From a virus (lineage: Duplodnaviria; Heunggongvirae; Uroviricota; Caudoviricetes): a DNA stretch of 22,828 nt. A program made the translations under genes and the position numbers. Shown piece after piece: positions 40-17,706 of this stretch. The notes under the pieces were generated by a model. The model saw only the letters and a program-made list of their open reading frames with translations, had not been told where the DNA came from and did not search any database. The stretch covers positions 1-22,828 of IMG/VR virus record IMGVR_UViG_2737471841_000005; one strand, given 5' to 3'. Numbering within the stretch: position 1 is the stretch's first letter; each line of letters starts with the position of its first letter.

Positions 40-402
40 GGGGCTGATTCTGGATTCGACGGGATTTGCGAAACCCAAGGTGCATGCCGAGGGGCGGTTG
101 GCCTCGTAAAAAGCCGCAAAAAATAGTCGCAAACGACGAAAACTACGCTTTAGCAGCTTAATAACCTGCTTAGAGCCCTCTCTCCCTAGCCTCCGCTCTT
201 AGGACGGGGATCAAGAGAGGTCAAACCCAAAAGAGATCGCGTGGAAGCCCTGCCTGGGGTTGAAGCGTTAAAACTTAATCAGGCTAGTTTGTTAGTGGCG
301 TGTCCGTCCGCAGCTGGCAAGCGAATGTAAAGACTGACTAAGCATGTAGTACCGAGGATGTAGGAATTTCGGACGCGGGTTCAACTCCCGCCAGCTCCAC
401 CA
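40..402 (+). ncRNA. ssrA: tmRNA (transfer-messenger RNA, SsrA)
   Basis: Begins GGGGCTGATTCTGGATTCGACGGG and ends ...GGACGCGGGTTCAACTCCCGCCAGCTCCACCA, 363 nt, matching my memory of E. coli ssrA; contains the tag reading frame; possible -10 TATACT at 20..25 upstream. Confidence 0.95.
129..161 (+). other. tmRNA tag-peptide reading frame (ANDENYALAA + TAA)
   Basis: GCA AAC GAC GAA AAC TAC GCT TTA GCA GCT TAA read directly in the sequence; canonical enterobacterial degradation tag. Confidence 0.9.
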
Positions 403-403
403 A
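358..403 (+). repeat. attL core: 46-bp direct repeat lying in the 3' end of ssrA
   Basis: ATGTAGGAATTTCGGACGCGGGTTCAACTCCCGCCAGCTCCACCAA recurs identically at 17707..17752; identity breaks on both sides. Confidence 0.85.
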
Positions 404-1391: not shown

Positions 1392-1607
1392 TCAGTAAAC
1401 TAATTGCTCCTGCATCCCTTTGGGATGCGGTGGGGCGGCACTGATTTTCTCGGGACGACAAACAGAACGAACAAAGGTTTCATGCGTTACAAACGTATGC
1501 CCACACTCAATATTAGTGCACTGATTGTAACGCTCTTTGGTTTGAGAGGAGACTTGAAAACTACTGCGAGTATGTGCGGCCTGACCACACAACGGACAAT
1601 TCATCAT
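1392..1607 (-). CDS. ogr: Ogr-type late transcription activator (C4 zinc finger)
   Basis: 71 aa, MMNCPLCGQAAH...CTNIECGHTF; Cys pattern and size as in P2 Ogr; located after gene D as in P2. Confidence 0.85.
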   Translation of the reverse strand: MMNCPLCGQAAHTRSSFQVSSQTKERYNQCTNIECGHTFVTHETFVRSVCRPEKISAAPPHPKGMQEQLVY

Positions 1608-1675
1608 TTATCAACTCTCCTCATCTTTGCTATATTTACAATAATGATACACCATTATTCAATATTGAGAACCAT

Positions 1676-2776
1676 TTATTCCATCTCAAGATCACCAATC
1701 CTCACTTCAAGCTCAAGACTGGTCGTAAAACCGTTATCCGGGCTGACGGTATGTGTCAGAGTCGTAATGGTCCATTCCGCATCATCTATCGGCTGTTTAA
1801 AGCCACTGACCTTCACAGGCATTTCTGTGTAGAGGTCTGCCCGCCCTTCCGCCAGTTGTAGCGAGAATGATGCAACGCCGCGTTGCAGGCGTTCCCACTG
1901 CATTTTCGCTGCCCGTTCGGCGTTGCTCCGGTTGGCATAAGTGCGATTAAGTACCAGCACGTTTTCATCCGTACCCACCAGATAATCGCCCTGCTTCGCT
2001 TCCGGCTCTTTCTTCTGCTTCTTAGTCTTGCGCTTACGCTTCACCGTAGTGCTTTCTTTCTTCGCGGGTTCGCGGGTATGCAACCAGCTGGCAATTACAC
2101 CCGTATAGGCTCCGCGATCTGCCAGGGTAAAGCGGTGACTGTCGCCGTCTTTACGTGTGATAGAGATCACCGGCAGTGGTTTACCGCTGGCGCTTTTGCC
2201 CTGTCCCTGCCGGATGAATAACAGATTGCCATTTTTCACCGACGCGATGGCACCGTACTGTCGCGCCAGCCGCATCAGAAAACTACCGTCACTCTCATTA
2301 GTCTGGTCTATATGCTCTACGAGCTTATCCGACAGGTCTTTACCCAGTGCCATCTTCAGCTTATGCCGCGAGGCTATTTCCTTCACCACTTCCCCGACGG
2401 TGGTCTTATGCCACGATTTTTCACGGCGGGTATTCAGCGTTTCCCGAAAATCAGCACTTCGCGCCCGGATAGTCAGGCGATCCGGTGCGCCAGTGTGTTC
2501 AATCTCGTCCACCGTGAATGCCCCTTTCGGGAAAAGCGGCTGCCCCTTCCAGCCCAGCGCCAGCGTGATGACCGCACCACGGCGCGGCAGCACGATTTTT
2601 CCGTCGGCGTCGTCCAGCTCCAGATCAAGCTGGTCTGCTTCAAAGCCCCGATTGTCCGTCAACGTCAGACTCATCAGGCGGTTATCCAGCACAGTGGTGA
2701 TATCCTTCCCCTCAATACTGATGCTGAATGCGGGAGTTTTGTTGCCTTTGTTAAGCAGTTCAGAGCTGAAATTCAC
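1676..2776 (-). CDS. D: Tail protein gpD (P2 late gene D family)
   Basis: 366-aa ORF, last gene of the FI-FII-E-T-U-D synteny; GTG start overlapping the gpU stop. Confidence 0.8.
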   Translation of the reverse strand: MNFSSELLNKGNKTPAFSISIEGKDITTVLDNRLMSLTLTDNRGFEADQLDLELDDADGKIVLPRRGAVITLALGWKGQPLFPKGAFTVDEIEHTGAPDRLTIRARSADFRETLNTRREKSWHKTTVGEVVKEIASRHKLKMALGKDLSDKLVEHIDQTNESDGSFLMRLARQYGAIASVKNGNLLFIRQGQGKSASGKPLPVISITRKDGDSHRFTLADRGAYTGVIASWLHTREPAKKESTTVKRKRKTKKQKKEPEAKQGDYLVGTDENVLVLNRTYANRSNAERAAKMQWERLQRGVASFSLQLAEGRADLYTEMPVKVSGFKQPIDDAEWTITTLTHTVSPDNGFTTSLELEVRIGDLEME

Positions 2777-3258
2777 GACAGCAGCCCTCCCACCGTTTTA
2801 CTGATATCGCTTAAGGCAGACGTTGCCGTGTCCTGCAGATTATTCAGTTGAGTACTGAGATCACCGAACATATCGGACAGGGATTCATCCACCCGTTTTA
2901 GCGAAAGGGTGAACTCAATCCTGCGCGGCATACCGTCGCGGAAAAACTCCGTTTTAGTCTGATTCAGTCCCTCAATCACATACATGCCGTAAATCGTGCC
3001 GCTGCCTTCAATCAGGGGCCATGCTTTCCCCTGTTCTGCCATCTGCTCCAGTGCCAGCAACGACAGCCTGCCGCCTGTTATCTCCGGCATAAGAACACCG
3101 GAAAGCGTCAGCATGTCGTTTTCCGGTCCCAGAAACTGCGTGGACGGACGACGGTTTACCCGGCTGTTTGCCGCATGTCGCCAGCTGCGTTGATACTGCA
3201 GTTCCTGATACGGAACGGTGCGCAGCATAAACACGTACAATCCCAGCACCATCATCAT
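2773..3258 (-). CDS. U: Tail protein gpU
   Basis: 161-aa ORF between tape measure and D, translationally coupled on both sides; P2 gpU size. Confidence 0.8.
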   Translation of the reverse strand: MMMVLGLYVFMLRTVPYQELQYQRSWRHAANSRVNRRPSTQFLGPENDMLTLSGVLMPEITGGRLSLLALEQMAEQGKAWPLIEGSGTIYGMYVIEGLNQTKTEFFRDGMPRRIEFTLSLKRVDESLSDMFGDLSTQLNNLQDTATSALSDISKTVGGLLS

Positions 3259-6200
3259 GCGTCGTATCCCCCCTGATCGCTGTAGTTACTCCTGGCTTTT
3301 GCCTTCAGCCTGCGTTCACGTTCATCAAGCTGGCGTGCCACCTCCCGCGCAATATCCTGCGCACTTTGTCCTGGCTGCGTCTGAATGATGATCTGCGTCG
3401 GTGCCTCAATCCGTTGAACGAGCGGCACAGTGGCTGCGCGACTCACAATTGCTTCTCCACCTTTCGCGGGAAGTGCCAAAGGGTGCAACGGTGGAAGCTC
3501 TGCTGGCGCGGCAGCAACGCCCATCATTCCGGCAACAACGGCAGCCAGTGCAGCTGTATTTCTCCGGCTGGTCACATTTGCCGGGCCGTTAACAATTTCC
3601 GGCCCGTTTTCACCGACGATGCCAAACTGCCCGCGCGGGATATACCCGCCGCTGTCATACATCCCCGCAAAGCCATATCCCCATGACGGAAAACCACCCG
3701 ATGGCATCATCACTTTACCGTCTGCATTCACCGTCGCAGGTTGCTGACGCGTCACGCTTTCCGGCAGTTTTGCCTTTGCGGCCTCTTTACTGACAATGCC
3801 AAGTTTCTCCAGCAACCAGGAAACGCCGGATTTCAGGGAGTCCAGCGGATGCATGACCATATTCAGCCCTTCCGCCAGTGCCTCTCCGAATCGCCGCCCC
3901 ATTGCCGCTGCACTCTGCAGTTCGGCAGAGGTCGACTTAACGGGCGTCAGCAGATCAGTAAACCAGCCCCACAGCGCCTGTACTTTGTCGCCAATCCACT
4001 GGAACACGGGCTTAAGCGGTTCGAATGCTGCACTGATGGGACCTGCCGCCGCTTTGAATCCTTCCACCACGCCACCAAGAAATGCGGTGATGGGTTGCCA
4101 GTATTTCCAGACAACCAGCGCCACGCCCGCCAGTGCAGTAACCACAAGACCTATCGGACTGAGCAGAGCACCTAACAGACCAGATACGGCATACAGGGCA
4201 ACGCGCAGCATCGCCAGTGGACCAGATGCCAGTACTCGCAGCACCGTGCCTGCGGCGACCAGTCCACCGCGCAGTACCGCCAGAGGATTCATAAACATCA
4301 CAGCAACAGCACGTAAACCGGATAATCCAGACCGCAAAAGTGCAACCGGCGCACCTGCTACAGTTTTCAGGACATTTCCCGTCAGTGATGCCGTGCGGCG
4401 CAAAGACGACAACGGCGCAGTAAGTAAACCTGCGGCGTTGCCCGATGAAGCAAGCCCGCGTCGCAGCAGTGCCAGTGGTGCGCCAGCCAACCAGGACAAC
4501 GCGCTGCTGGTTCGAGTTACTGCTGCCGTAACAGAAGGTAACGTTTTGATACCCAGCACAGAGAATCCCAGACGGATCACTGCCAGCGGCCCCAGCACTG
4601 CAGCCAGCGCCACCGCTAAGGTGCCGAGGCCTACTGTAACCGCAGCCACAACAGCCGCTACTTTCATCAGTGTGCCTGTCAGTTCCGGGTTAGCTTCCAC
4701 CCAGCGGCGCAACGCCCCCGTGATTCTTTTCACCGTGTACAGAATATCCATCAGCGGCTGGCGCAGCGTTTCGCCCAGGCTGCTGAAGGTGTTCTGCGCT
4801 CCGGTTTTGACCAGCAACCACTGAGCAGAAAGTGAGTCTTTGTTGATGTCGGATTCTTTCTGCATGGAACCGAGCGCATCATTGCCCGCTGTCAGTTTTA
4901 GCTGGCGCTGCAGTTCCGGAAGGTTGTTTGCCAGTTTCGCCGCGTCATCACCAAACTCTTTACCAAACAACATGGTCATGGCAGACAGACGCTTGTCCTG
5001 CGGCAGTGCGTTCACCTTCTCCAGCACACGCTGGATAGTTCCCATCGCATCCTTCGTCATCTGCTTTTCAATCACTTCAGGATTGAGTTTCAGCAGATTC
5101 ATCCCTTCAAAGAAACTCTTGCTTTGCATGGTGGCAATGGACAATTCACGCACCATCGCGTTTGCTGCACTGGCTGCAACCTCCGGCGCAGCGCCCAGTG
5201 TCAGAAAGGTGGAACCCAGTGCCGCCGCTTTACGATAATCCAGACGATCAGCCACACCGCCCAGGCGTTGCATGACATCAATGATGTCTGCCCCTTTCGA
5301 CATGGCGTTATCATCCAGATAGTTCAGCGCATCACCGAGCTGTTCAATATTGCGGGTAGGGATTTTGTAGAGCTGGGCGATTTTCCCCAGACTTTCTGAC
5401 AGTTCATCCGCTGGCAGCTCAAAGGCTGTTGCCGCCTTTGCTGCCGTGCTGGCGAAGGCCAGCAGATCACGTTTCTGGTCTTCCCAGCTGTCGTCAGGGT
5501 TTGCGACGTTCATGCGCGCCCCACCTTCAACCAGTGCAGCGAAGTCCACCGCACCGTTTTCCATCGGCAGCTGTTCGCTGGCAGCCTTGATGGCATCCTG
5601 CATTTCATAAAAACGCGCAGTGCGGTTGCCATTATCGTCACGCAGACCATTGACCTGCTTTGCCACACCTTTCATGGCATCTTCCATGCTGGTATAGCTT
5701 TTTACTGCCGCCATCACTGGCGCACCCATTGCCAGCCCTGCAGCCGTGGTAGTGGCTCCGGCTCCTGCGATGCGATCGCGCACTTCAAGCCGTCTTGAGT
5801 ATTGTTCTCTGGCAGCGTTCATCCGTGCCTGTTGTTCACCCAGACGTTTAAGTGCTCTTTGCTGGCCCTCCAGTGCCTGCCTTGTTTCTTCAGCATTTTT
5901 CTTAAGTTCTCGCTGGGCACTACTGAGTTGTCTGGTATCAATCCCTGATTCTTTAAGTGCCTGACGTTGTCTCTGGACCGCCCCCAACAAGCCGTTATAG
6001 GTCTGCTGAAGTTCCTGTACTCGTGTTTTGGCCTGACTGAATAACTTTGCCTGCGCGGCGGTTGGCCTGTTAGTGGCAGCAAATTGTGTGGCGAGTTTTG
6101 CCGCCTCTTCGCGGGCTGCGTTCAGGTTGTTGGCTGTTATGGCTAGTTGCGAGCGCGTCTTGCGAAATTCATCAATTCTGCCAGCCTGCTTATTCAGTTC

Positions 6201-6332
6201 TTTGAGGCTGTTTCGGGTATTCTGAATTGCGCCAGCCAGCTCTTTCGAACTGGCCTGTGCAGCACGGAATGGGCGGGTGAGTTTGTCAACCGTATTAAGA
6301 ATGACCTGCAGGCGCAGGTTATTATCACTCAT
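3255..6332 (-). CDS. T: Tail tape measure protein gpT
   Basis: 1025-aa ORF; N-terminal coiled-coil-like region, Ala/Gly/Leu-rich hydrophobic stretches, C-terminal domain; position after E/E' as in P2. Confidence 0.9.
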   Translation of the reverse strand: MSDNNLRLQVILNTVDKLTRPFRAAQASSKELAGAIQNTRNSLKELNKQAGRIDEFRKTRSQLAITANNLNAAREEAAKLATQFAATNRPTAAQAKLFSQAKTRVQELQQTYNGLLGAVQRQRQALKESGIDTRQLSSAQRELKKNAEETRQALEGQQRALKRLGEQQARMNAAREQYSRRLEVRDRIAGAGATTTAAGLAMGAPVMAAVKSYTSMEDAMKGVAKQVNGLRDDNGNRTARFYEMQDAIKAASEQLPMENGAVDFAALVEGGARMNVANPDDSWEDQKRDLLAFASTAAKAATAFELPADELSESLGKIAQLYKIPTRNIEQLGDALNYLDDNAMSKGADIIDVMQRLGGVADRLDYRKAAALGSTFLTLGAAPEVAASAANAMVRELSIATMQSKSFFEGMNLLKLNPEVIEKQMTKDAMGTIQRVLEKVNALPQDKRLSAMTMLFGKEFGDDAAKLANNLPELQRQLKLTAGNDALGSMQKESDINKDSLSAQWLLVKTGAQNTFSSLGETLRQPLMDILYTVKRITGALRRWVEANPELTGTLMKVAAVVAAVTVGLGTLAVALAAVLGPLAVIRLGFSVLGIKTLPSVTAAVTRTSSALSWLAGAPLALLRRGLASSGNAAGLLTAPLSSLRRTASLTGNVLKTVAGAPVALLRSGLSGLRAVAVMFMNPLAVLRGGLVAAGTVLRVLASGPLAMLRVALYAVSGLLGALLSPIGLVVTALAGVALVVWKYWQPITAFLGGVVEGFKAAAGPISAAFEPLKPVFQWIGDKVQALWGWFTDLLTPVKSTSAELQSAAAMGRRFGEALAEGLNMVMHPLDSLKSGVSWLLEKLGIVSKEAAKAKLPESVTRQQPATVNADGKVMMPSGGFPSWGYGFAGMYDSGGYIPRGQFGIVGENGPEIVNGPANVTSRRNTAALAAVVAGMMGVAAAPAELPPLHPLALPAKGGEAIVSRAATVPLVQRIEAPTQIIIQTQPGQSAQDIAREVARQLDERERRLKAKARSNYSDQGGYDA

Positions 6333-6761
6333 CGTTGGCCCCGCTTCTCTGAATCGCTTTATACCGCCATTCCAGCACTTCGGTCAGCGGCATAACGTCA
6401 GTAACGGATGGCGGCCAGTGAAAGATGGTGGCGATATCAGCCACCAGATCGTCAACCGTCAGGCTGTCGGTAAACCGGCAAGCACCGACTTCTTCAACAA
6501 AAAAGTGACAACCTCAACCGACATGGCAGTGAGATCTGCCGGGTCCATCTCTGCGATTTCCTGTGCAGTCAGTGCCGGACTGGAGATGCGGGGGATCACG
6601 GTCATCATCGCGTTCACATCCATATCCATAATGGCCTGCAGGCGTGTGCCGCGCAGCGCACCGGACTGCGGTTTACGCAGCACAATTTCGGTAATTTCTG
6701 TTTTACCGCGCATGATGGGAGTATCCAGTTTAATAGTCTTTTCAGTCTGCTTATCGCTCAT
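6325..6761 (-). CDS. E': gpE+E' fusion made by programmed -1 ribosomal frameshift at T TTT TTG (6498..6504)
   Basis: Slippery heptamer on the minus strand at codons 87-88 of E; the -1 frame stays open for 57 codons (VEEVGACRFTDSL...RSGANDE) and stops at TGA 6325..6327 overlapping the gpT start; about 145 aa total, as for P2 E+E'. Confidence 0.7.
6459..6761 (-). CDS. E: Tail assembly chaperone gpE (in-frame product)
   Basis: 100-aa ORF MSDKQTEKTIKLDTPIMRGK... between FII and T; carries a T TTT TTG slippery site near its 3' end. Confidence 0.85.
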   Translation of the reverse strand: MSDKQTEKTIKLDTPIMRGKTEITEIVLRKPQSGALRGTRLQAIMDMDVNAMMTVIPRISSPALTAQEIAEMDPADLTAMSVEVVTFLLKKSVLAGLPTA

Positions 6762-6815
6762 TTTGCTGTCCTGTAAATTGGGTTCTGGCGCGGCATTCCG
6801 CGCCGTTCAGATACA

Positions 6816-7331
6816 TCAGAGGCCGAGGGCGTTGCGGTGCGCTTCCATCAGGTCCACACCGTCCACAATTTCCACCATGTTGATAAGGTCCACTTCATAG
6901 AGCACCTCACCATTGATAGTCAGCTTCGCGTAGCTGTTGGTACTGGTCACTTTGGTGGTGTTGCTTTCGCCCGTCTTCCACTCGCCGGAATCCACTTCTT
7001 TGTGACGTCCACGCACCACAAGCTCCACGGCCTGCACTTCTCCGGTATCGTCACGCTGGATAGAGCCGGTGAAGCGCAACTGGATGCCATCCACCGTGGC
7101 TTTGCCCATCTGTTTAAACAGCAGCAGTTCAGTACCACCAATGGAAAATTCTGTGTCCAGCGCACTGTCATCAAGCCCCAGATCCACATCCACTGCACCC
7201 GGCATTCCGCCGCCGCGATACTTCTCATATTTGCGGGTGAATTTCGGCAGCGTCAGCGACTCAACGATCCCCTGCCAGTTGTTCCCGTCATTAAACAGGT
7301 TCAGGTGTTTTAATTTGCGTGGTAAAGCCAT
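6816..7331 (-). CDS. FII: Tail tube protein gpFII
   Basis: 171-aa ORF MALPRKLKHLNLFNDGNNWQG..., size and position as in P2 FII. Confidence 0.9.
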   Translation of the reverse strand: MALPRKLKHLNLFNDGNNWQGIVESLTLPKFTRKYEKYRGGGMPGAVDVDLGLDDSALDTEFSIGGTELLLFKQMGKATVDGIQLRFTGSIQRDDTGEVQAVELVVRGRHKEVDSGEWKTGESNTTKVTSTNSYAKLTINGEVLYEVDLINMVEIVDGVDLMEAHRNALGL

Positions 7332-7340
7332 GTTGTCCCC

Positions 7341-8513
7341 TTACGCGCTGACCTGGCTGGAGAAATTCACCAGGTACTGATCGGTGATGCGCTGACGCAG
7401 CATCAGGTTTTCAAGTGGCGGCACTGGCGTGTAGTCGTAGTCGATGGTGAGTTTTCCGGCTTTCAGCGTGTCTTTGTCGTTCACCGACTCATCCAGCCAG
7501 CAATCACCACCAATGAGATAGCCCTGACTGACCAGGCTGCGCATTTTGGCGCGGATACCCTCGATAATGTCGCGGGCCAGCGACGGGTTAAGCGGTTTAT
7601 CCACCGCCCACATGTGTGCTTCTGCCATCGTGTCCATCAGTACCTGCGCTGTACGGGTGTAGTTCTCGAAGGCAAAGAGCGGGTCATCACTCAGGCAGCG
7701 GGAACCCCAGAAGCGGAAACCATCCTTGCGCACAAGCGTGGTGACGTCGTTCTGGTTCAGCAGACCTGCATCGGTTGCCGGGTCCTGCAGATCCCAGAAC
7801 ACATCAGCAGAAATTCCGGTGACACCGTTCACGCCCACGTTGGACAGGCTTTTGTGCCATCCGGTCTGCTCATCAATTTTGGCGCGCAGACCGAGCGCAC
7901 GGGCGGTGGCATAAGCCGTTGCTTCGGCATTCAGCACCGTGTCCCAGCCAGTAAAGTCGGGCCAGATCAGCATTCCTTCACGCTGACTGAAGTTTTCACG
8001 GTAAGTGATCGCCTCCTGTACCGTCTTGCAGCCATACGCTGACAGGTAAGCAAACCCACGCAGGCTTTGCGCCACGCTCAGCAACTCAGTAGCTACCGCC
8101 TTGGTGTCGTGGCCTGGCACGCCGAGAATGCGCGGTTTAACGCCGAGCTGTGACTGGGCAGATAACAGGGCTTTCATACCTGTTTTTTTACCTTCAGCAG
8201 TCACTGCGCCGATGATATTGGTCGTGGTTTCGTCTTCCGTTTCACCCTGCGGCACACGCACAACAATGGTCACGGGTTTTGCCTGGTCAGCGATGGCATC
8301 CAGCGAACGGGCCAGAGTACCTGACTCACCCGCTTTACCGCTGGCAGTCAGCACATCAGTGATCAGCACGGGTTTATTAAGAGGAAACATTTTTGCATCG
8401 GCATCATCGCCCGTGCAGACCATACCCACGATGGCGGTGCTCACCGTGGTAATAGATCGGGTGCCTTCGTTGACTTCAACAACGCGCACCCCGTGGTGGT
8501 AATCCTGAGCCAT
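7341..8513 (-). CDS. FI: Contractile tail sheath protein gpFI
   Basis: 390-aa [22 protein letters not shown]..., first gene of the tail operon; AGGAGG RBS upstream. Confidence 0.9.
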
Positions 8514-8589
8514 AGTGGCGAACCTCCTGATTGGATTAGGCTTCGCCCTATGTTGAAGTGATTGTGCCTGACAAACAGCTAAGCGCAGT

Positions 8590-8607
8590 TGTGTCGTTAT
8601 TCACACA
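8590..8607 (-). promoter_or_regulatory. Candidate Ogr-dependent late promoter element (TGT-N12-ACA dyad) for the FI operon
   Basis: TGTGTCGTTATTCACACA dyad about 85 bp upstream of the FI start codon; matches the P2 late-promoter activator site pattern. Confidence 0.4.
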
Positions 8608-8655
8608 AAATAACGGTATTTGTCTGCTTGCAGGGATAATCAACATAATGCTGAT

Positions 8656-9228
8656 TCAGGGGGATTCATTGATCTTATTTGCCGGAAATTTTCTATAAAT
8701 GGTAGAAACGCCTACATCAAAAATCAGTGCAATACGCTGTCTTGATTCTCCGGCCTCGAGTAAACGCCCAATCTGTGCCCACTGTTCGGTGGTCAACTTA
8801 GGATGGCGTCCACCTACTCTGCCTTTGGCACGAGCTGCAGCCAGCCCTGCCCTGGTACGTTCAACTATCAGTTCGCGTTCCATTTCAGCCAGGGCACCCA
8901 TGACATGAAAAAAGAAACGGCCCATTGGGGTACTGGTATCAATACTGTCAGTCAGGCTTCTGAAATTCACACCACGCTGGCGCAACTCTTCTATCAGCGT
9001 AACAAGATGCCGCATACTGCGCCCCAACCTGTCCAGCTTCCAGACAACCAGCGTGTCTCCTGCCGATAGTGTCCTGAGTAGTTTTTTCAGCCCCGGTCTG
9101 TCGGACTTAGTGCCACTGATTTTGTCCTCAAAAATCTGCTCACATCCCGCGCAGTTCAGTGCATTACGTTGCAAATCGGTGTTCTGGTCATTTGTTGACA
9201 CGCGTACATAGCCAATAAGCATGATCAT
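8656..9228 (-). CDS. Serine DNA invertase, Pin/Gin/Cin/Hin family
   Basis: 190 aa, MLIGYVRVSTNDQNTDLQRNAL... with catalytic Ser motif and C-terminal HTH; likely true start at the MLIGY Met (9222). Confidence 0.9.
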   Translation of the reverse strand: MIMLIGYVRVSTNDQNTDLQRNALNCAGCEQIFEDKISGTKSDRPGLKKLLRTLSAGDTLVVWKLDRLGRSMRHLVTLIEELRQRGVNFRSLTDSIDTSTPMGRFFFHVMGALAEMERELIVERTRAGLAAARAKGRVGGRHPKLTTEQWAQIGRLLEAGESRQRIALIFDVGVSTIYRKFPANKINESP

Positions 9229-9674: not shown

Positions 9675-9850
9675 GTGATTTATATGAACGAATATGTTTA
9701 TAGTGCCAAGCATAATGCTTTTTTCCCTGTGGATATGATTGATAAATATAAATCAGTAGGATGGGATTTATCAGATGCTAAGGAGGTGAATCAAAATATT
9801 GTCAGTGAGTTTATGGCTGAACCGCCACAAGGAAAAGTCCGTATTTCCGC
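9675..9850 (+). pseudogene. Tail-fibre assembly (Tfa/U'-like) gene, N-terminal fragment
   Basis: Starts MNEYVYSAKHNAFFPVDMIDKYKSVGW, resembling the N-terminus of phage tail-fibre assembly proteins; recognisable sequence stops after about 55 codons where the gpA-like gene overlaps on the other strand. Confidence 0.45.
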
Positions 9851-10951
9851 GATAAGCTCCAGACCTTTAACACAGACCATCATCTCATTGCGGCGATGCG
9901 CAGGGTTGCTGCTGCTGGCGTTTACCACATCTTCCATATCCAGCGTGTCGCCGTCTTCGTTCACCAGTTCATGAGAACGAAAAAACTCCAGCGACTTACG
10001 GCGCTGCTCACGTTTATGCATCACGGCTTCATAGCTGACATAGGGGGATGCTTTTTTGCTGACCAGGCAGACAGCACGCAACTGCTCTTCCCGCCATTCG
10101 CAACGCATCTTCCATAATTTCCGATACCACCAGTCGGCACACAACATACGCGCCAGCGAACCCGGAATGAGTTCATAGGGCACGGGTTTACGGCGGTTTC
10201 TTTTCCGACGGAGTTGCTCAAACGCAGGCGGAATAACATCCAGACGCAGGGTTTCCGCTGCCACCTTTTCCCATGTTTTGCGGATTTCTTCTGGCTTAAC
10301 GTCATCGGTGGCATACAAATCGCCACAAGCTGCATCAAGACACATGCTCATATGCGCAGCAACAAGGGTGGACAGGCGTTTCACCTGATCCTGACTCATT
10401 TCAGGCAGGATCAGCAGGCCGTCCAGCCCTTCATGGCTTGCCATAAAGCGAAAAGAAGTGGATAGCTGACTCTCGCGTACATGCTCCAGTCGTTCCAGAC
10501 ATGGCTTAATCGTCTCACGCAAATAGCGGGAATAAGCCTTTGGCCTGCCCAGGCTGCTGAAGTATTCAATACGTTGCATCAGCGGCTTGCTGATATGGGA
10601 AGGCTGGGCGTTGACGTCCGCCAGAATGACCATGTCTGGATTAAAACGCTGCTGCTCATGCGCCAGCTTTGCCCGGCTAATGAGCTTATCCTGCTCCATT
10701 TCGCGCTGGACAGGATCACGGGATTCATTAAAGAAATAACGCTCCCAGACCTGATCACTCAGTGCCTCGCGGCGCAGTTGTTCCTGCTCGTTATCGGCAG
10801 CGTACAGAGTGATCAGGTTTGAAAGCGCAGAAACCGGCGCAACTTCTGCCGGGTCCAGATAAGGGTTAATAGCCTTTTTCGGGCTGTCCCATGAGAATGC
10901 TGCGGCGGCCTCGTTAAAGCCGCTGCAGTTGTTCATATCAGCATGGCTCAT
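9791..10951 (-). pseudogene. gpA-like replication initiation protein, C-terminally truncated by a deletion
   Basis: 386-aa ORF coupled to dam upstream (ATGA overlap) in the gpA position; about half the length of P2/186 gpA and ends in non-conserved sequence overlapping the tfa fragment. Family call is by position and weak recall. Confidence 0.45.
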
Positions 10952-13627: not shown

Positions 13628-13685
13628 AGTGCAGTATCTCCCGATTAAGGTTTGGTTTACGTCGTTTTATCTCGTTTTACTTGAT

Positions 13686-13729
13686 TCAATATTTGATACA
13701 TCGAGATACTACGATCCAATATTTGATAC
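13686..13729. repeat. Two 13-14-bp direct repeats (CAATATTTGATAC) spaced 30 bp apart, bracketing the pR -10; candidate CI operators
   Basis: Copies at 13686..13699 and 13716..13729; second tandem pair TCGTTTTA at 13662..13669 and 13672..13679. Confidence 0.45.
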
Positions 13730-13734
13730 GTCAA
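13706..13734 (-). promoter_or_regulatory. Candidate lytic promoter pR for apl-cII (-35 TTGACG, 17-bp spacer, -10 TAGTAT)
   Basis: Minus-strand hexamers at 13729..13734 and 13706..13711 with 17-bp spacing, about 75 bp upstream of the apl ATG. Confidence 0.55.
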
Positions 13735-15777: not shown

Positions 15778-17511
15778 CTACTCAAGGAGATATTCTAACT
15801 CATCTTTTATCGGGATAATTTGCTCATAAAGTCGGTGATATGACTTCCCAATTGCGCCTCTAAATTGTATTAACTTTGGTGGCTTACTACCTATATTAAT
15901 AATATGGTCTTGAGCTATACCTGGGTAGGGATCAATAAATACAATTTCAGATATACCTAACTGATAAGCTTTTTTCGCACACAACTCACAGGGACTGGCA
16001 GTTGTATACAACTTCCCCCCCAGAACGCCAATACCACCATATTTTGCAAGTTGTAAAAATGCGTTTTCCTCAGCATGTAATGCACGTGTATGAACTTGAT
16101 TACCTTTTTTCTCTTTATCAAGATCATTATGTATATCTTTAAAACAATAAGATAAGTTCCTGCCTCTATAAATATCACCAGTTTTATCTATCGCCCTAAA
16201 ATTTAAGAGTTTCTCATTAGCTTTAATTCTGAAAGAACTATTATTTCTCTCATAATGACTGTACGTTTTTTCATCAAAATCGTTCATTAGGCCATCTAGA
16301 GATCTCATAGAGCAAGGAATCTGACCGTTGGCAACATCATTCCAACCAACTGATTTTATTGAATTATCACCATCAGTTACTACAGCTCCCACCTGTCTAG
16401 ATATACAGCCAGAGTTTAATTTTACCGTATACGCAACTTGCATAACCCTTTCCATTGCAGTAGGTGTTATCAGACCAGGATGCTTCATCAGTGCGATGTA
16501 CCACGCTAATTGTGCTTTTAAAATATTGTCATTATCAAATTCATTTTTTGGGTTAAAAATGTGTATATCTGATAGTTCAATACATTTAGTTACATTTGGA
16601 TTGGTGAGATGTTTGTAAGAGTTATCACCTTTACCTGACTCTACAGAATCTATTTCCTCTATCTGCTTTTCTGAAAACTTATGTAGTTTCCGCAAATAGT
16701 TTGTTCGATGTTCATCTGGGGCATTTATTGACATTAAATGAAATGCAGAATATCTATCCTTAAAAAATTTTGCCTCATATGGATTTCTAATAGCATCTAT
16801 GACAATTAATGCGTTATCTCTTTTGCTTTTTCTTATTAATTTAATAACCCTATTAATAGTTTCCGGCAAATGAAAAACAGATTTAGGCATAAACTCTTTA
16901 TCTTCAAAATCGACTTCAATACGCCCACGACGTCTAATTGACTTACCTGCTAACTGATAGGCTGAAACATATAAATTTGAGTTTATCTCATTTAGTTCAG
17001 CTTTGAATTCTTTAGTAAATTTTCTAACTAACTTCAAAATTGATATAAATTTATTAATCGTTTTTTCATCAAGCTTCAATTCACTATTATGATCAAGCAA
17101 ATTCTCAATTACATTTTTAAATCTTGTCAAAATGAGATTATCTGAGAATACACCAAAAGTTAATACAATATCTAAATGCTCTTTACTGATAAATTTATTA
17201 GATGATAGAATGAATTCAGAAGCTTCCTCAACTGTTAACATCAGAAGATACGCTGAGATTAGGTCACTCACCTTAATTGAGTAAAAATTTTCCCAGTGAT
17301 TTTCTGCGAATTTTTTAACTATATTATAACGATGGACATCCAATCCCTTGTAAAACCCCTGTAATTTACTTACATCAGGGAAGACTGTTTTTTCGTTTTC
17401 AAGAATATTAGCTGTTGTTGTGCAACCAGAACCAGTTCGACCTGTCAAACCGACTAAAATAAACTGCCCATTTTCAAGGAAAAGCTCACTAACGAATTTT
17501 TTTTCTTTCAT
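15778..17511 (-). CDS. P-loop kinase-like / cytidine-dCMP deaminase fusion protein (AvcD/Dcd-type anti-phage candidate)
   Basis: 577 aa from ATG 17511 (GTG at 17514 in the track); N-terminal P-loop-like VGLTGRTGSGCTT, C-terminal zinc deaminase motifs HAEENA (around 16075) and PCELCAKK (around 15990); strongly AT-rich; sits between int and attR. Confidence 0.85.
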   Translation of the reverse strand: MKEKKFVSELFLENGQFILVGLTGRTGSGCTTTANILENEKTVFPDVSKLQGFYKGLDVHRYNIVKKFAENHWENFYSIKVSDLISAYLLMLTVEEASEFILSSNKFISKEHLDIVLTFGVFSDNLILTRFKNVIENLLDHNSELKLDEKTINKFISILKLVRKFTKEFKAELNEINSNLYVSAYQLAGKSIRRRGRIEVDFEDKEFMPKSVFHLPETINRVIKLIRKSKRDNALIVIDAIRNPYEAKFFKDRYSAFHLMSINAPDEHRTNYLRKLHKFSEKQIEEIDSVESGKGDNSYKHLTNPNVTKCIELSDIHIFNPKNEFDNDNILKAQLAWYIALMKHPGLITPTAMERVMQVAYTVKLNSGCISRQVGAVVTDGDNSIKSVGWNDVANGQIPCSMRSLDGLMNDFDEKTYSHYERNNSSFRIKANEKLLNFRAIDKTGDIYRGRNLSYCFKDIHNDLDKEKKGNQVHTRALHAEENAFLQLAKYGGIGVLGGKLYTTASPCELCAKKAYQLGISEIVFIDPYPGIAQDHIINIGSKPPKLIQFRGAIGKSYHRLYEQIIPIKDELEYLLE

Positions 17512-17706
17512 CACGTCCCACTTATGAATGCAAGAACAATTAGCATATTAATTATAATTTATTAACTAATTTTATTCTAGATGCTTGATGTAATGGCGGC
17601 ACTTTGGCGGCAGAGCATTAAAAACGCGTAAGACGAGCAAATACAAAATAACACTAACACATTGTTTTCAAACATAATCTACTGTTTTTACTATAATAAA
17701 AATGGT

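Follow-up and report, generated by a model that had tools for sequence, protein, structure and literature searches.

An intact and probably idle P2-type E/E+E' frameshift signal in a Peduoviridae prophage remnant at ssrA of Escherichia coli

We analyzed a 22,828-nt stretch of DNA (the window), which is E. coli chromosome carrying a Peduoviridae prophage remnant at ssrA. In its tail chaperone gene, a slippery heptamer almost certainly represents the signal for programmed -1 ribosomal frameshifting in a P2-type E/E+E' pair; it is intact but probably idle and appears to be kept by recency. The E/E+E' frameshift of P2-like phages is already known: it has been described, experimentally shown in P2 and recognized as conserved. 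The window holds a new but unremarkable copy of this recoding signal. There is little biological novelty in it, and the added value lies in its context, namely nested deletions in one prophage lineage.

The heptamer TTTTTTG is read on the minus strand from 6504 to 6498 (CAAAAAA at 6498-6504 on the plus strand). The gene E homologue (6459-6761, minus strand) starts with an ATG at 6761, stops at 6461-6459 and comprises 100 codons plus the stop. Its codon 86 is ACT, and the last base of this codon together with codon 87 (TTT, 6503-6501) and codon 88 (TTG, 6500-6498) forms T TTT TTG in the X XXY YYZ register of the zero frame. Re-reading G6498 in the -1 frame gives 57 sense codons (VEEVGACRF...RSGANDE) followed by a TGA at 6327-6325. 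This E' extension (6325-6498, minus strand) translates in full as VEEVGACRFTDSLTVDDLVADIATIFHWPPSVTDVMPLTEVLEWRYKAIQRSGANDE, and the predicted E+E' fusion peptide contains ...VVTFLVEEVGACR. Direct reading and a frame check thus confirmed two statements of the first-pass annotation, which had placed the heptamer at codons 87-88 of gpE and had described a -1 frame of 57 codons after it. The same annotation had let the E' stop codon overlap the start codon of the tape measure gene, T. The two reading frames do overlap, by 8 nt (ATGAGTGA), but the ATG of T lies at 6332-6330 and the TGA begins 2 nt past it, so that the two codons share no bases. E and E' are located between the tail tube and tape measure genes, with FII at 6816-7331, E at 6459-6761, the end of E' at 6325 and the start of T at 6332. 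An antisense open reading frame at 6277-6900 (plus strand), which had no Pfam match, was treated as spurious.

We then compared the translated products with known families. The zero-frame product of 100 amino acids matched the Pfam tail assembly chaperone profile Phage_TAC_7 with 67.8 bits (E = 8.9e-19, profile positions 1-78 of 79; cut-off, 25 bits). In the fused product of 145 amino acids, Phage_TAC_7 was found at residues 9-88 (66.7 bits) and Phage_P2_GpE (PF06528) at residues 107-143, the latter with 65.5 bits (E = 2.9e-18) over the whole profile, positions 1-37 of 37 (cut-off, 23 bits). The fused product also matched the PHROG tail families 103, 1756 and 6416; the match to PHROG 103 ("tail protein"), the family to which we assign gene E, reached E = 2.8e-42 when scored with the fusion. 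NCBIfam returned no match for the fused protein, and a PDB sequence search with E+E' returned no solved relative. Aligned with its P2 counterpart, as had been proposed at first pass, the fusion is 48% identical over 139 amino acids (E = 5e-50), and E' alone is 56% identical over 57 amino acids without gaps (E = 8e-24). Together with the full-profile Phage_P2_GpE match, this identity runs counter to the notion that the -1 product might be unlike the E' extensions of P2-like phages.

Neither the heptamer nor the length of the open frame is striking by itself. TTTTTTG occurs nine times on the two strands of the window, compared to 8.97 copies expected from dinucleotide-preserving shuffles, and because this is the chance level we dropped heptamer frequency as an argument. 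Similarly, the 23 genes of the window contain 30 in-frame X XXY YYZ heptamers, and since longer -1 frames follow two of the others, both located in gene T, the length of the frame alone is weak evidence. Beyond chance are the homology of the predicted -1 product and the fact that relatives have kept the site, the frame and the extension. Among 80 loci of close relatives taken from IMG/VR, 79 carry TTTTTTG at codon 87 with a 57-codon extension, and the remaining one has TTTTTTA, which is synonymous and still slippery. A tblastn search with the fused protein against 50,697 phage records matched 427 records, in 387 of which at least 80% of the fusion was covered as two pieces, that is, in two frames. 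We read ten diverse loci, from Yersinia, Burkholderia, Salmonella (two), Ralstonia, Enterobacter, Vibrio, Acidovorax and Klebsiella phages and from P2. In all ten of these P2-like phages, which represent ten genera with gamma- and beta-proteobacterial hosts, T TTT TT[G/C] stands in frame, and each extension is 55 to 70 codons long and carries the motif ADIAxIFHWPP...WR..A. The description of the slip site as conserved is therefore borne out, both in the close relatives and in the ten diverse phages.

To look at selection on the -1 frame, codon-position bias was considered in 58 distinct sequences drawn from the 80 close-relative loci and the window. The stretch that belongs to E' only has 16 variable sites, distributed 6/2/8 over the -1-frame positions, which are too few for this measure, and it was replaced by dN/dS calculated according to Nei-Gojobori. 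In pairwise comparisons of the window with five of the ten diverse phages, dN/dS was 0.12-0.33 in the E' frame, compared to 0.9-2.3 in the two control frames; these values reflect selection in the phage family and not in the remnant. Since the low values are limited to the E' frame, the -1 frame is a protein-coding sequence under purifying selection in that family.

Alternatively, E' could be an independent gene of 39 amino acids that initiates at GTG 6444, with the heptamer only incidental. PGAP and other gene callers indeed report a free-standing 39-aa "GpE family phage tail protein" in the intact ssrA prophage of E. coli strain HS4, in Escherichia phage Cartapus, in L095 (GCA_005391745.1, a carrier of the same remnant) and in several phages, and Pfam PF06528 spans exactly this piece. 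However, amino-acid conservation in the -1 frame begins at the heptamer, upstream of the GTG (VEEVGACRFTDSLTVDDL in the window and VAELGAVTFPKNLSVDDL in P2). Furthermore, phiT5282H, VP58.5 and Alfacinha3 have no start codon at the position homologous to GTG 6444, and no obvious Shine-Dalgarno sequence precedes the GTG in the window. The in-frame heptamer is also kept across genera even though the surrounding DNA is only about 60% identical, and both the P2 record and the literature give the product as an E+E' fusion. Taking this together, we regard an independent gene as highly improbable. E' is expressible only as part of the 145-aa E+E' fusion, and the annotated 39-aa part with its GTG start (6325-6444, minus strand) is an annotation convention rather than a separate gene. 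Annotation pipelines nevertheless still split E' off as a spurious "GpE family" gene of 39 amino acids without modeling the frameshift, which is modeled in only a few records, those of P2, L-413C and KS14.

The change of frame could in principle also arise from RNA polymerase slippage on the run of six T, which would yield a subpopulation of mRNAs one base shorter or longer. The run is homopolymeric, polymerase slippage is possible on such runs (reviewed in PMC5009743), and ribosomal and transcriptional slippage are indistinguishable from sequence. The register of the site argues otherwise, in that the full heptamer is conserved as X XXY YYZ and its seventh base is G, C or A, never one that lengthens the run; this conserved register and seventh base fit tandem tRNA slippage. 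Moreover, six T are a short run for efficient transcriptional slippage. Finally, the homologous cases of lambda and P2 are described as translational frameshifts in PMC5009743 and PMC3091744. We therefore give transcriptional slippage very little credence and keep to programmed -1 ribosomal frameshifting.

By analogy with P2, the window copy would work as follows. The majority of ribosomes would translate gene E in the zero frame up to the stop at 6459 and release the 100-aa chaperone, while a minority would slip back by one base on T TTT TTG when decoding codons 87-88. These ribosomes would translate a further 57 codons in the -1 frame before terminating 5 nt into gene T, and their product would be the 145-aa E+E' fusion. 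As suggested by P2 E/E+E' and lambda G/GT, binding of the tape measure protein would fall to the N-terminal part that both products share, and recruitment of tube subunits to the E' part; tail assembly needs a fixed, low ratio of long to short product. For the window copy, slippage, its efficiency and the chaperone roles are what we infer by homology. As for precedents, in P2 a -1 translational frameshift at TTTTTTG leads from a single start codon to an E of 91 amino acids and an E+E' of 142, and E and E+E' are both produced and both required in tail assembly, according to PMC3091744 and the literature cited there (for the frameshift, Christie 2002 and Xu 2004). According to the lambda G/GT model (PMC5009743), the chaperones attach to the tape measure protein and bring in the tube protein. 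We found no convincing stimulatory RNA structure in the 111 nt from the slip site onward in the window (z = -1.5; 15 of 200 shuffles fold equally well). This weak fold agrees with P2, for whose slip site PMC3091744 reports no downstream hairpin.

The tmRNA gene ssrA (40-402), the only hit of an Rfam scan of the window, marks the right end of the prophage. A 46-nt perfect direct repeat delimits the element, with one copy in the 3' end of ssrA (358-403, plus strand) and the other at the left end (17707-17752, plus strand), beyond int and a dCTP deaminase cargo gene, and bounds about 17.3 kb. The prophage genes on the minus strand are ogr, D, U, T, E/E', FII, FI and a Gin-like invertase gene; beyond this tail block come a plus-strand fiber-tip fragment and then a truncated A, dam, early genes, cII, cox, C, int and the dCTP deaminase gene. 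The ogr-type late-gene activator gene (1392-1607, minus strand, 71 amino acids) was assigned through the Ogr_Delta match of the identical L095 gene and is called ogr/Delta-like in HS4. It is followed on the same strand by homologues of D (1676-2776, 366 amino acids, Phage_GPD), U (2773-3258, 161 amino acids, Phage_P2_GpU, E = 2.8e-44) and the tape measure gene T (3255-6332, 1025 amino acids, PhageMin_Tail), the last of the same length in Cartapus and HS4. Upstream of E on the minus strand are the tail tube gene FII (6816-7331, 171 amino acids, Phage_tube, E = 8.8e-60) and the tail sheath gene FI (7341-8513, 390 amino acids; Phage_sheath_1, Phage_sheath_1C and Gp18_domIII_N), which is the first gene of this FETUD-type operon. 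A pattern match placed a TGT-N12-ACA dyad, which we take to be the element typical of Ogr-dependent P2 late promoters, at 8590-8607 (minus strand), about 75 nt upstream of the FI ATG; the pattern is not over-represented in the window, with three occurrences found and six expected.

Several other features of this region and its flanks were recorded. A second heptamer, G GGG GGA at codon 1021 of T (3267-3273, minus strand), would lead by a -1 shift into gene U for 164 codons. Its run of G is positioned 8 nt ahead of the start codon of U, so that the best reading of it is the Shine-Dalgarno sequence of U; the heptamer is kept in Cartapus, HS4 and F1005 and missing in P2. Searches of Pfam, NCBIfam, PHROGs and PADLOC gave no match for a plus-strand open reading frame of 237 amino acids (576-1289) that lies inside the prophage, between the ssrA end with its repeat and ogr. 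The intact HS4 prophage carries an identical copy, Cartapus has a different gene in that cargo slot, and we consider the open reading frame a candidate accessory or defense gene. The gene at 15778-17514 (minus strand) encodes an anti-phage dCTP deaminase (PADLOC dCTPase, E = 1e-145), and its position between int and the left repeat makes it prophage cargo and not a host gene; in Cartapus this slot is taken by a RES-domain gene. The cox-C intergenic region contains two 20-nt direct repeats (13683-13702 and 13713-13732) that are 90% identical and spaced 30 nt start to start, likely repressor operator sites. Beyond the prophage, the autotransporter gene ypjA is broken into at least three open reading frames (17912-18238, 18267-20369 and 20309-21301), and a second copy, 94% identical, of the sequence just downstream of ssrA (398-464) is found at 21924-21990, adjoining a resolvase pseudogene (21442-21699). 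The split ypjA and this second copy suggest an older ssrA-associated island beyond the prophage.

The element is defective. About 19 kb that separates the invertible fiber segment from the middle of gene A is missing in the window, whereas Cartapus and HS4 are complete. The alignments that approach the junction from either side meet and overlap at 9840-9849, where a 5' fragment of the tail-fiber-assembly gene (plus strand, from 9684) is joined to the middle of gene A (minus strand, 9791-10951). The overlap between the tail-fiber-assembly and gene A alignments is 10 nt long (CGTATTTCCG), which suggests a microhomology-mediated deletion that started inside the invertible fiber segment. An assembly artifact was ruled out as the cause of the deletion, as the junction recurs in independent assemblies. 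Gene A is cut to 386 amino acids and matches positions 1-179 of 321 of the Pfam GPA profile; in Cartapus and HS4 the protein has 804 amino acids (2,415 nt). In the intact HS4 prophage, which occupies the same site, the interval from the invertible segment to A contains genes for fibers, baseplate, tail completion, lysis, head and packaging, and we found no head, packaging, lysis, tail-completion, baseplate or full fiber genes in the window. Without a complete virion gene set and an intact A, the window does not hold a functional prophage, and with the head, lysis, tail-completion, baseplate and fiber genes lost no virion or tail can be completed. Gene content and the comparison with HS4 are thus in good agreement with the first-pass statement that the rest of the virion is gone.

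P2 late transcription requires Ogr and phage DNA replication. Because gene A is truncated, autonomous late expression is unlikely. The frameshift signal in the window is intact but probably idle. Occasional expression is possible, for example by activation in trans from a superinfecting relative, with the six tail genes, ogr and the dyad being intact.

The question is then why the cassette is intact. We had been offered two explanations at first pass, that the tail module is under selection or that it has only recently decayed. All tail genes in the window are full length, and E and E' show no nucleotide difference to HS4. The stretch from ogr to E (1392-6761) differs from HS4 at 7 positions, 5 of them nonsynonymous, and FII and FI (6816-8513) differ at 31, of which 30 are synonymous. 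The FII/FI block looks recombined, which indicates a mosaic boundary between E and FII. To trace the deletion, we searched with the product of the truncated gene A; the junction turned up in six contigs of a public collection, and four loci were read. Three of them are 100% identical to the window: L095 over 20,951 bases, L097 (SRR29037622) over 15,356 bases and L098 (SRR4294895) over 8,455 bases. The fourth, L096 (GCA_005400305.1), has one mismatch and a further deletion of 5,083 bp, corresponding to window positions 3678-8760, in which E', E, FII and FI are gone along with the N-terminal three quarters of T and the last part of the invertase gene. L096 shows stepwise prophage decay within one clone, and its loss of the E/E' cassette makes that cassette demonstrably dispensable. 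Another integrase-bearing element was observed beside the ssrA end of L096. None of 5,426 complete E. coli genomes contains the junction, and the remnant is confined to a young clone. In strain F1005, a prophage of this type at ssrA was truncated independently and in another way.

Selection by the host would nevertheless offer a reason for the state of the ogr-D-U-T-E-FII-FI block, either as a domesticated module or as a reservoir for complementation of, or recombination with, superinfecting P2-like phages. In line with this, the six tail genes, ogr and the late-promoter dyad are all intact and full length, and the remnant is present in more than one isolate. However, the block from ogr to FI lacks the baseplate, tail-completion and fiber genes that any contractile particle requires, and the carriers are identical in sequence, so that recency suffices to explain the intactness and no selection is needed. 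Additionally, one carrier has deleted the N-terminal part of T, E', E, FII and FI without any other change, F1005 lost a different part of the same prophage type at the same site, and the junction is missing from the complete genomes. Host selection for the block is hence very unlikely in our judgment. The nucleotide identity of the cassette to an intact prophage and the loss of T-E'-E-FII-FI in a sister isolate favor recent decay, rather than host selection, as what accounts for the intact cassette. Of the two first-pass explanations, recent decay is thus the favored one, and the intact cassette does not in itself testify to host selection. In other words, the age of the remnant is that of a single clone, one sister isolate is already without the cassette, and the intact signal reflects recency. 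Recoding signals that are intact in prophage fragments should not be mistaken for evidence of selection. It is just barely conceivable that the ogr-D-U-T-E/E'-FII-FI block, with a working frameshift signal and late promoter, is retained for its usefulness, providing superinfecting P2-like phages or satellites with tail shaft components or with substrates for recombination, or acting as a decoy that perturbs their tail assembly; if true, the decoy role would be a case of prophage-remnant-mediated interference.

Compared to P2, whose E+E' we rebuilt from the P2 record, where the annotation itself marks a -1 frameshift in E+E', the arrangement is reproduced as first proposed: the heptamer, its register, the 57-codon extension and the 8-nt overlap with T are all as in P2. 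In the same register, T TTT TTG occupies codons 84-85 of the 91 of E in P2 and codons 87-88 of the 100 in the window, and the -1 extension is 57 codons long in both. The overlap of E' and T has the same 8-nt geometry, ATGAGTAA in P2 and ATGAGTGA in the window, and the gene order FI-FII-E-E'-T-U-D-ogr is that of the P2 FETUD tail operon. The products differ in length, E with 100 amino acids compared to 91 in P2 and the fusion with 145 compared to 142, and the zero frame runs for 12 codons past the slip site instead of 6. Unlike P2, the window copy belongs to a different genus-level group, being about 95% identical to Escherichia phage Cartapus (Elveevirus), and it resides within a defective prophage. 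The tail module DNA is 96% identical to that of Cartapus and 99.2% to that of HS4, which is nucleotide-identical to the window in E/E' and shares with it the ssrA integration site and the cargo gene beside ogr.

More broadly, the tail-chaperone frameshift is conserved in tailed phages (Xu, Hendrix and Duda 2004, as cited in PMC5009743 and PMC3091744). As in the window, lambda G/GT consists of two products with a common N terminus, generated by a -1 shift near the gene end, and the gene is flanked by the major tail/tube gene and the tape measure gene. The lambda slippery sequence, G GGA AAG, is unlike that of the window, and the window phage, with its sheath and tube, is contractile-tailed, unlike lambda.
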